In this document: one piece after another, positions 42,452 to 43,897 of the stretch | Layout: the number at the start of each line of letters is the position of its first letter | Numbering within the stretch: the first letter of the stretch is position 1 | Assembly: GCF_044647545.1 (NCBI RefSeq) | Contig: NZ_CP172818.1 | DNA length: 64,000 nucleotides | From: Escherichia coli | GTDB taxonomy: Bacteria > Pseudomonadota > Gammaproteobacteria > Enterobacterales > Enterobacteriaceae | Strand: one strand, 5' to 3' | Made by a program: the position numbers and the translations under genes | Notes under the pieces: generated by a model | The model's database searches: none | What the model was told of the DNA's origin: nothing | Seen by the model: the letters and a program-made list of their open reading frames with translations, nothing else

Positions 42452-42847
<396 letters not shown>

Positions 42848-42888
42848 CACTTTTCGGTTTACTGTGGTAGAGTAACCGTGAAGACAAA

Positions 42889-43074
42889 ATTTCTCTGAGA
42901 TGTTCGCAAGCGGGCCAGTCCCCTGAGCCGATATTTCATACCACAAGAATGTGGCGCTCCGCGGTTGGTGAGCATGCTCGGTCCGTCCGAGAAGCCTTAA
43001 AACTGCGACGACACATTCACCTTGAACCAAGGGTTCAAGGGTTACAGCCTGCGGCGGCATCTCGGAGATTCCCT
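42889..43074 (+). ncRNA. ssrS: 6S RNA
   Basis: Sequence ATTTCTCTGAGATGTTCGCAAGCGGGCCAGTCCCC...GGCATCTCGGAGATTCCC recognised as E. coli 6S RNA; ends are approximate. Confidence 0.9.
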
Positions 43075-43146
43075 TCTTATCTGGCACCAGCCATGACGCA
43101 ACTACCCGAACTCCCACTGACATTATCCCGACAAGAAATCCGCAAA

Positions 43147-43695
43147 ATGATTCGGCAACGTCGTCGTACGTTAACGCCGGAACAACAGCAGGAAATGGGT
43201 CAACAAGCCGCTACCCGGATGATGACTTATCCCCCGGTGGTGATGGCACATACGGTCGCTGTATTCCTCTCTTTTGATGGCGAACTCGACACCCAGCCAC
43301 TCATAGAACAACTCTGGCGCGCCGGTAAGCGCGTATATCTTCCAGTTTTGCATCCCTTTAGTGCCGGTAATTTGCTGTTCCTGAATTACCATCCGCAAAG
43401 CGAACTGGTGATGAACAGGTTGAAGATCCATGAGCCAAAACTGGATGTGCGTGACGTGCTACCCCTTTCCCGATTAGACGTGTTGATCACACCGCTGGTC
43501 GCCTTTGATGAGTACGGTCAGCGCCTGGGAATGGGCGGTGGTTTTTATGATCGGACCTTACAAAACTGGCAGCACTATAAAATGCAACCGGTGGGTTATG
43601 CGCATGATTGTCAGTTGGTGGAAAAACTCCCCGTTGAAGAGTGGGATATCCCTCTTCCTGCGGTGGTTACACCGTCGAAAGTCTGGGAGTGGTAA
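43147..43695 (+). CDS. ygfA: 5-formyltetrahydrofolate cyclo-ligase
   Basis: 182-aa product from MIRQRRR; an in-frame alternative start at 43093 would give 200 aa; lies immediately 3' of 6S RNA. Confidence 0.85.
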   Translation: MIRQRRRTLTPEQQQEMGQQAATRMMTYPPVVMAHTVAVFLSFDGELDTQPLIEQLWRAGKRVYLPVLHPFSAGNLLFLNYHPQSELVMNRLKIHEPKLDVRDVLPLSRLDVLITPLVAFDEYGQRLGMGGGFYDRTLQNWQHYKMQPVGYAHDCQLVEKLPVEEWDIPLPAVVTPSKVWEW

Positions 43696-43720: not shown

Positions 43721-43749
43721 TTGACATCGTTGATTCTTTAACCTAATTT
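43721..43749 (+). promoter_or_regulatory. sigma-70 promoter of sibC (TTGACA-17 bp-TAATTT)
   Basis: Perfect -35 hexamer at 43721-43726 and -10-like hexamer at 43744-43749. Confidence 0.55.
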
Positions 43750-43756
43750 AGTGAGT

Positions 43757-43897
43757 AAGGGTAAGGGAGGATGACTCCTCCCCTGAGACTGACTGTTAAT
43801 AAGCTGGGAAACTTATGAGTAACAGTACAATCAGTATGATGACAAGTCGCATCATAACCCTTCTCCTTCAAGCCCTCGCTTCGGTGAGGGCTTTACC
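43757..43897 (+). ncRNA. sibC: SibC antitoxin sRNA of a type I toxin-antitoxin
   Basis: Antisense to the ibsC ORF; internal hairpins GGGAGG...CCTCCC and GCCCTCGCTTCGGTGAGGGC; boundaries inferred from the promoter and terminal hairpin. Confidence 0.6.
43796..43855 (-). CDS. ibsC: type I toxin IbsC (19-aa hydrophobic peptide)
   Basis: Minus-strand ORF ATGATGCGACTTGTCATCATACTG... translating to MMRLVIILIVLLLISFPAY, the Ibs-family signature. Confidence 0.75.
   Translation of the reverse strand: MMRLVIILIVLLLISFPAY

Follow-up and report, generated by a model that had tools for sequence, protein, structure and literature searches.

Conservation, protein-family and initiation-profiling evidence favour the upstream ATG as the start of fau (ygfA), next to 6S RNA in Escherichia coli

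The window analysed here is a stretch of 64,000 nt from Escherichia coli, and its gene fau (formerly ygfA), directly downstream of the 6S RNA gene ssrS, raises the question of where translation begins. The reading frame, which ends at a TAA stop (43693-43695), contains two in-frame ATG codons, one at 43093 that would give a 200-aa product and one at 43147 that would give a 182-aa product. In the curated record of K-12 MG1655 (NC_000913.3), fau occupies 3056241-3056789 and encodes a protein of 182 aa (NP_417387.3), the start of which is equivalent to position 43147. PGAP places the 200-aa start both in a strain that is 100% identical to the studied stretch and in K-12 BW25113 (NZ_CP009273.1, 3049546), where fau (200 aa, WP_000192748.1) begins 20 nt after ssrS. 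One and the same K-12 fau sequence has two RefSeq starts, at 182 aa in MG1655 and at 200 aa in BW25113. By computation (3056241 minus 54), ATG 43093 falls at position 3056187 of MG1655. An earlier note on this DNA had pointed out the two ATGs, which are real, and the two possible products, which are indeed split between public annotations, and had called the choice of start ambiguous. That judgement does not hold. ATG 43093 is very probably the true start of fau, with Met19 an internal residue and the 182-aa annotation of K-12 an N-terminal truncation, because conservation of the start, two invariant arginines (R13 and R17), the family profile, a structure model and published initiation-site profiling all favour it. 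Against it stand the curated MG1655 record, which still lists 182 aa, the lack of a Shine-Dalgarno (SD) sequence, and an accessibility that is no greater than that of ATG 43147.

The region is a textbook E. coli ssrS-fau transcription unit, in which all of the testable features of 6S RNA and of the 5-formyltetrahydrofolate cyclo-ligase (5-FCL) family were found. Co-transcription of ssrS and ygfA and their conserved arrangement have already been described (PMC2848244, PMC7641849). A 1.4-kb stretch has 100% identity to many complete E. coli chromosomes and was found in 5,425 of 5,426 complete genomes. The gene order, zapA-ssrS-fau-sibC/ibsC-serA with serA on the minus strand, agrees with RefSeq (Table 1). 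The identities and coordinates proposed in the earlier note for 6S RNA and ygfA are correct, as judged from the Rfam match, the identity to K-12 and the protein profiles. Its figure of about 19 nt between 6S RNA and ATG 43093 was right as to proximity and short by 1-2 nt, the actual gap being 21 nt if 6S RNA ends at 43071, as annotated in K-12, or 20 nt if it ends at 43072, as in Rfam and PGAP. The known type I toxin-antitoxin locus sibC/ibsC follows the stop codon of fau at a distance of about 25 nt.

Table 1. Features of the ssrS-fau region, with positions counted from the first nucleotide of the window
Feature	Position	Strand	Basis
zapA CDS, 109-aa ORF, upstream neighbour	42518..42847	+	RefSeq annotation
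Sigma-70 promoter-like site, ATGACA-18-TAGAGT with TG extension	42844..42873	+	Consensus scan, 9/12 matches
ssrS, 6S RNA	42889..43072 (mature to 43071, K-12 annotation)	+	Rfam RF00013; RefSeq ssrS
C-rich, G-poor stretch, candidate Rho utilisation region	43070..43147	+	Sliding-window C/G scan
Pyrimidine-rich 20-nt spacer, the fau leader, without SD	43073..43092	+	Anti-SD duplex; composition
fau (ygfA) CDS, 5-formyltetrahydrofolate cyclo-ligase, 200 aa and stop	43093..43695	+	Pfam, TIGRFAM and NCBIfam profiles
ATG, best-supported fau start (200-aa product)	43093..43095	+	Conservation; TetRP; PGAP
Codons of R13-Q-E-I-R17, the N-terminal [K/R]-x-x-[L/I]-R motif	43129..43143	+	Alignment; lies outside the 182-aa form
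ATG of Met19, K-12 MG1655 start (182 aa)	43147..43149	+	Most likely internal Met, helix 1
sibC antitoxin RNA	43721..43871	+	Rfam RF00113, 136.5 bits; RefSeq
ibsC toxin CDS, antisense to sibC	43796..43855	-	RefSeq

The 6S RNA matches Rfam RF00013 on the plus strand with 139.8 bits (E 2e-29; gathering score 46.4) over the full model, positions 1-187 of 187, closing stem, central bubble and terminal hairpin included, and bases 42889-43071 are identical to K-12 ssrS (183/183). Since the identity is complete, it is a safe inference from the literature that this RNA would bind the sigma-70 RNA polymerase holoenzyme and template pRNA synthesis (PMC3299989). Its context, downstream of zapA and upstream of ygfA/fau, is typical of gamma-proteobacteria, and 62 enterobacterial and four Pasteurellaceae loci show the same order. 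The promoter-like site, which precedes the mature 5' end of 6S RNA by about 9-16 nt, is probably the proximal ssrS promoter, to judge from its match to the consensus. It presumably corresponds to the P1 promoter of ssrS described by Kim & Lee (2004). A simple scan found no promoter between 6S RNA and fau or inside 6S RNA, and the only terminator-like match on the plus strand, at 43522-43537, is within the number expected from shuffled sequences.

The conservation of the start was followed in a scan of one genome per species, which gave 68 loci with Fau relatives. The loci are mostly from Enterobacteriaceae and hence phylogenetically related, with four from Pasteurellaceae and one from Colwellia. 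The sequences were anchored on the motif R-x-x-[I/L]-R-x-x-[I/M/L/V]-R, which was found in 67 of them (66 loci and the studied stretch). In all 67, an in-frame ATG precedes the R-x-x-[I/L]-R motif by 7-15 codons, at position -10 relative to the motif in 58 sequences and at -12 in the six Escherichia sequences. Chance alone would, by estimate, place an in-frame ATG within the 18 codons upstream in roughly one case in four, which is not unusual; as far as the aligned sequences go, it is the conservation of the upstream ATG, not its presence, that exceeds chance. Among 58 distinct orthologous sequences, column entropy is zero at this ATG and at the next two bases, AC, while the mean over the 25-nt leader is 1.35 bits. 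The codons of the extension, between the two ATGs, have entropies of 0.91, 0.65 and 1.21 bits at codon positions 1, 2 and 3, a coding-like pattern in which the third position exceeds the second, and the length of the extension differs between genera by whole codons. The sole difference in the extension between the studied strain and K-12 is a synonymous CCC/CCA change at Pro5.

The codon aligned to Met19 behaves differently from the upstream ATG. It is ATG in 15 of the 67 sequences, from Escherichia, Salmonella, Pseudocitrobacter and some Citrobacter, while the other 52 have a non-start codon there (CTG, TTA, CTA, GTT, CTC, ATC, ATA, ATT, TTC, TTT, ACT, ACC, CAC, CAT, CAA, CAG or TAC), GTG and TTG being absent. 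The short start is therefore absent in most genera. The residues encoded at this position in the non-ATG orthologues are Leu, Ile, Val, Phe, Thr, His, Gln and Tyr.

The upstream start is a property of fau itself rather than of its adjacency to 6S RNA. The arrangement of the two genes, conserved according to the earlier note, is indeed widespread: of 64 loci from Enterobacteriaceae and allied genera, 62 have 6S RNA immediately before fau, as do all four from Pasteurellaceae. The two exceptions among the 64 are a locus from an uncultured Klebsiella, where the sequence is cut off within 6S RNA (L049), and that of Colwellia demingiae (L062). In the latter (positions 1-1900), Rfam detected no 6S RNA upstream of fau even at E values up to 1, so the ssrS-fau linkage is not universal in gamma-proteobacteria; a 320-aa ORF ends 138 nt before fau at this locus. 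Colwellia fau, though without 6S RNA, also starts before an R-x-x-L-R motif. Three loci of Klebsiella/Enterobacter type have an extra 80-105 nt between 6S RNA and the fau ATG (L031, 1099-1200, Klebsiella spallanzanii; L049, 55-153; L036, 1076-1200, Enterobacter sp. 10-1), as against a spacing of 15-25 nt in other genera. All three keep the ATGAC start, with in-frame stops upstream of it in at least two (L031 and L036). It is because these loci and Colwellia keep the upstream start that it can be assigned to the gene and not to its neighbour. Two further loci have a shortened fau ORF, of 126 aa in Enterobacter sp. EA-1 (CP025776; L066, 1201-1578) and of 188 aa in Kluyvera genomosp. 3 (L058, 1174-1737); each is a frameshift, a pseudogene or an assembly error.

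The family to which Fau belongs leads to the same start. 5-FCL catalyses the ATP-dependent conversion of 5-formyl-THF to 5,10-methenyl-THF, a function of Fau that is established in the literature and that the protein encoded here would share on the basis of its sequence. The 200-aa form scores 161.7 bits with PF01812, 178.6 bits with TIGR02727 and 447 bits with NF007661, the curated cut-offs being 27, 84.9 and 343, respectively. Position 1 of both the PF01812 and the TIGR02727 models aligns to residue 13 of the long form. The 182-aa form matches these two models only from position 8, with losses of 8.2 and 8.3 bits. R13 and R17, both upstream of Met19, are invariant in an alignment of 24 sequences that reaches down to about 50% identity in Pasteurellaceae and Colwellia. 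In PDB sequence and profile searches, R13-x-x-I-R17 aligns with K-x-x-L-R in five solved homologues: B. subtilis YqgN (1ydm), B. anthracis 5-FCL (2jcb), Aquifex MTHFS (1sou), human MTHFS (3hxt) and M. pneumoniae MTHFS (1sbq). In 1ydm and 1sou the first residue of the motif is chain residue 2-3, and in 3hxt it is residue 10. Only the 200-aa form has this N-terminal [K/R]-x-x-[L/I]-R motif, and a start six residues after it would, from the alignments, be anomalous for the 5-FCL/MTHFS family. The residues equivalent to R13 and R17, Lys10 and Arg14, presumably contact the ATP phosphates in MTHFS structures. A literature search for the role of Arg14 and Lys10 in human MTHFS returned matches that concerned Arg145 instead.

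The AlphaFold2 model of Fau has a mean pLDDT of 81.7 and a pTM of 0.80. Helix 1 is predicted to consist of residues 13-25, while residues 1-8 have pLDDT values below 50; the first 12 or so residues are a variable, probably disordered tail. Since Met19 is in the middle of the predicted helix, a start at this residue would halve helix 1. The residues found at position 19 across genera (Met, Leu, Ile, Val and Phe) fit a hydrophobic helix position. The model matches the structures 2jcb, 1ydm, 1sou, 3hxt/3hy3/3hy4/3hy6, 1wkc and 1sbq with E values from 5e-15 to 5e-9 and TM scores of 0.66-0.84, and with TM scores of 0.80-0.84 to 2jcb its fold is that of MTHFS.

Initiating ribosomes of E. coli BW25113 have been mapped by tetracycline-inhibited ribosome profiling (TetRP; Nakahigashi et al. 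2016, PMC4909307). Row 100 of their Table S2 (see also their Table S5 and Fig. S5) reports a new ygfA start, ATG -54, which gives 200 aa; the entry in Table S5 reads alt-N'(new), 200 aa, and its sequence is identical to the K-12 locus. Read depths in the three samples were 150.5, 4.68 and 0.62 at the new site versus 0, 1.75 and 0.33 at the annotated site. On manual inspection ygfA was scored as '1. new site', a class kept separate from '4. multiple', which covers two active sites. The gene is one of 87 to which TetRP gave a new start and whose start had not been revised in the K-12 annotations of 2006 and 2014 (PMC4909307). The TetRP data favour the long form of Fau with moderate force, the signal being weak and dominated by one of the three replicates, and the authors' own score for the ribosome-binding site at -54 is also weak. 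Ribosome profiling and N-terminal peptides had been named in the earlier note as the means of settling the start. The former, as published, supports a single start at ATG -54 at this moderate level; as to the latter, the study reports no N-terminal peptide for either form of YgfA, nor a reporter fusion. The N-terminal tryptic peptide would be TQLPELPLTLSR for the 200-aa form, on the prediction that its initiator Met is removed before Thr2, and MIR for the 182-aa form; QEIR(K) would likewise be specific to the long form. The text of the Meydan 2019 Ribo-RET preprint does not mention ygfA, and the supplements of Giess 2017 and of the mBio 2024 riboproteogenomics paper have no entry for ygfA or fau.

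The alternative that survives best, improbable as it is, is dual initiation in Escherichia and Salmonella, with proteoforms of 200 and 182 aa of which the shorter may be inactive or regulatory. All Escherichia, Salmonella and Pseudocitrobacter sequences and some of Citrobacter retain an ATG at codon 19, but the position takes Leu, Ile, Val or Phe across genera, as expected for a buried helix residue. The TetRP depth at the annotated site is nonzero in two of the three samples, and the low coverage leaves room for a minor start, yet the authors, who reported many E. coli genes with dual starts, placed ygfA with the new sites and not with the multiple ones (PMC4909307). ATG 43147 has no upstream SD, and the short product would be without R13 and R17. 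The features of a two-start gene were not found at this locus, the internal ATG being present in 15 of 67 sequences only and the initiating-ribosome signal, in low-coverage TetRP data, not being at both sites.

Translation from ATG 43147 only, with 43093-43146 as an untranslated leader of a 182-aa Fau, is highly improbable, even though it is what NC_000913.3 describes with its fau start at 3056241. A leader of this kind would encode, stop-free and in frame, the two invariant arginines and profile positions 1-7, and the model puts Met19 in mid-helix 1. The Met19 codon is a non-start codon in 52 of 67 orthologues, all 67 of which have the upstream ATG, and with depths of 0, 1.75 and 0.33 at Met19 the authors of the TetRP study scored the signal at -54 only (PMC4909307). 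With both ATGs lacking an SD, ATG 43147 is not disfavoured by signal strength, and the short form still scores above the Pfam and NCBIfam cut-offs.

A start at neither of these ATGs, but at a non-canonical codon in the intervening stretch (CTG 43117, for example) or within 6S RNA at ATG 42949, is so improbable that it can be set aside: CTG and ATC codons are present in the extension and the E. coli frame is open back to ATG 42949 (a 248-aa ORF), but the intermediate codons are not conserved while the ATG is invariant, Salmonella has an in-frame stop between 6S RNA and the conserved ATG, stops come immediately before the ATG in loci of Klebsiella type, and the 248-aa ORF would sit within a structured, abundant RNA. 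This ORF, at 42949-43695 on the plus strand, was rejected as a candidate, since it brings no gain in the Pfam score (160.8 versus 161.7 bits) and is interrupted by stops in other genera. The open frame in Escherichia could trap gene callers.

The anti-SD duplex has an energy of -1.5 kcal/mol at ATG 43093 and -0.7 kcal/mol at ATG 43147, as against -7.3 kcal/mol for the strong SD of zapA, which served as the positive control. SD strength was rejected as a discriminator between the two ATGs because both are without an SD. Accessibility of the mRNA was rejected likewise, since bases near either ATG are predicted to be unpaired with a probability of about 0.5 in models of the primary as well as of the processed transcript. 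The fau leader is rich in pyrimidines in the 58 orthologues (C 40%, T 33%, G 10%). Initiation at ATG 43093 may be independent of an SD and of low level, starting from a short pyrimidine-rich leader that would belong to the read-through ssrS transcript or else to the 3' fragment that remains once 6S RNA has been processed out.

The segment 43070-43147, which covers the 3' flank of 6S RNA and the first 18 codons of fau, contains 37% C and 13% G, and its C/G ratio of 2.9 is the maximum of the locus in the sliding-window scan. The ratio exceeds 2 in the equivalent 80-nt segment of 54 of 66 orthologues and is about 1 in the rest of the coding sequence. Rho-dependent termination within ygfA was described by Chae 2011 (J Biol Chem 286:114), as cited in PMC3299989. 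The composition of 43070-43147 fits a rut region, which is expected to be C-rich, G-poor, weakly structured and about 70-80 nt long. The C-rich spacer and the first 18 or so codons are the likely loading site for Rho in this published termination, which stops most ssrS transcripts within the early part of fau. If so, poor translation at the beginning of fau would allow termination and give 6S precursors, and occupancy by ribosomes would favour read-through. It is a tentative idea, and a somewhat doubtful one, that the SD-less start of fau and its first 18 or so codons double as the rut region of the Rho terminator that generates the 3' ends of 6S RNA, so that ribosome loading decides between 6S precursor and fau mRNA. 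If so, competition between translation and Rho at ATG 43093 would set the ratio of 6S RNA to Fau, and the C-rich, G-poor coding sequence of the Fau N-terminal tail, kept across Enterobacteriaceae and Pasteurellaceae, would be explained.

RefSeq records already disagree on the start and the TetRP study of 2016 dealt with the question, so the discrepancy is known, ordinary and largely solved; 6S RNA, the operon of ssrS and fau and termination by Rho inside ygfA are likewise established. The value of the present result lies in curation. In the MG1655 record and the resources that draw on it, Fau as listed probably lacks its first 18 residues; this short form is without two invariant arginines and half of helix 1 and could mislead the design of cloning and expression constructs, knock-outs or reporter fusions. 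With ATG 43093 as the start, mutations in 43093-43146 are coding, and it could mislead to read mutations in the 3' flank of ssrS as non-coding; constructs that alter this flank of 6S RNA also change the start region of fau.

Compared with known systems, the locus is the same as the ssrS-ygfA (fau) unit of E. coli K-12, from which the studied strain has no structural difference. Between the 3' end of 6S RNA and the fau stop, the two differ by five SNPs, with the amino-acid changes A26T and T164M. As a gene with a revised start, ygfA is in the same class as the other K-12 genes remapped by TetRP, and what is added here is support from comparative genomics, the protein family and structure. Fau has in common with the 5-FCL/MTHFS family a full-length profile match, the fold with TM scores of 0.71-0.84, the G-x-G-G-G-[FY]-Y-D-R segment and the N-terminal motif. 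The distinctive feature of enterobacterial Fau is a variable, low-confidence tail of 10-12 residues ahead of this motif, which in the B. subtilis and Aquifex proteins begins at residue 2-3.
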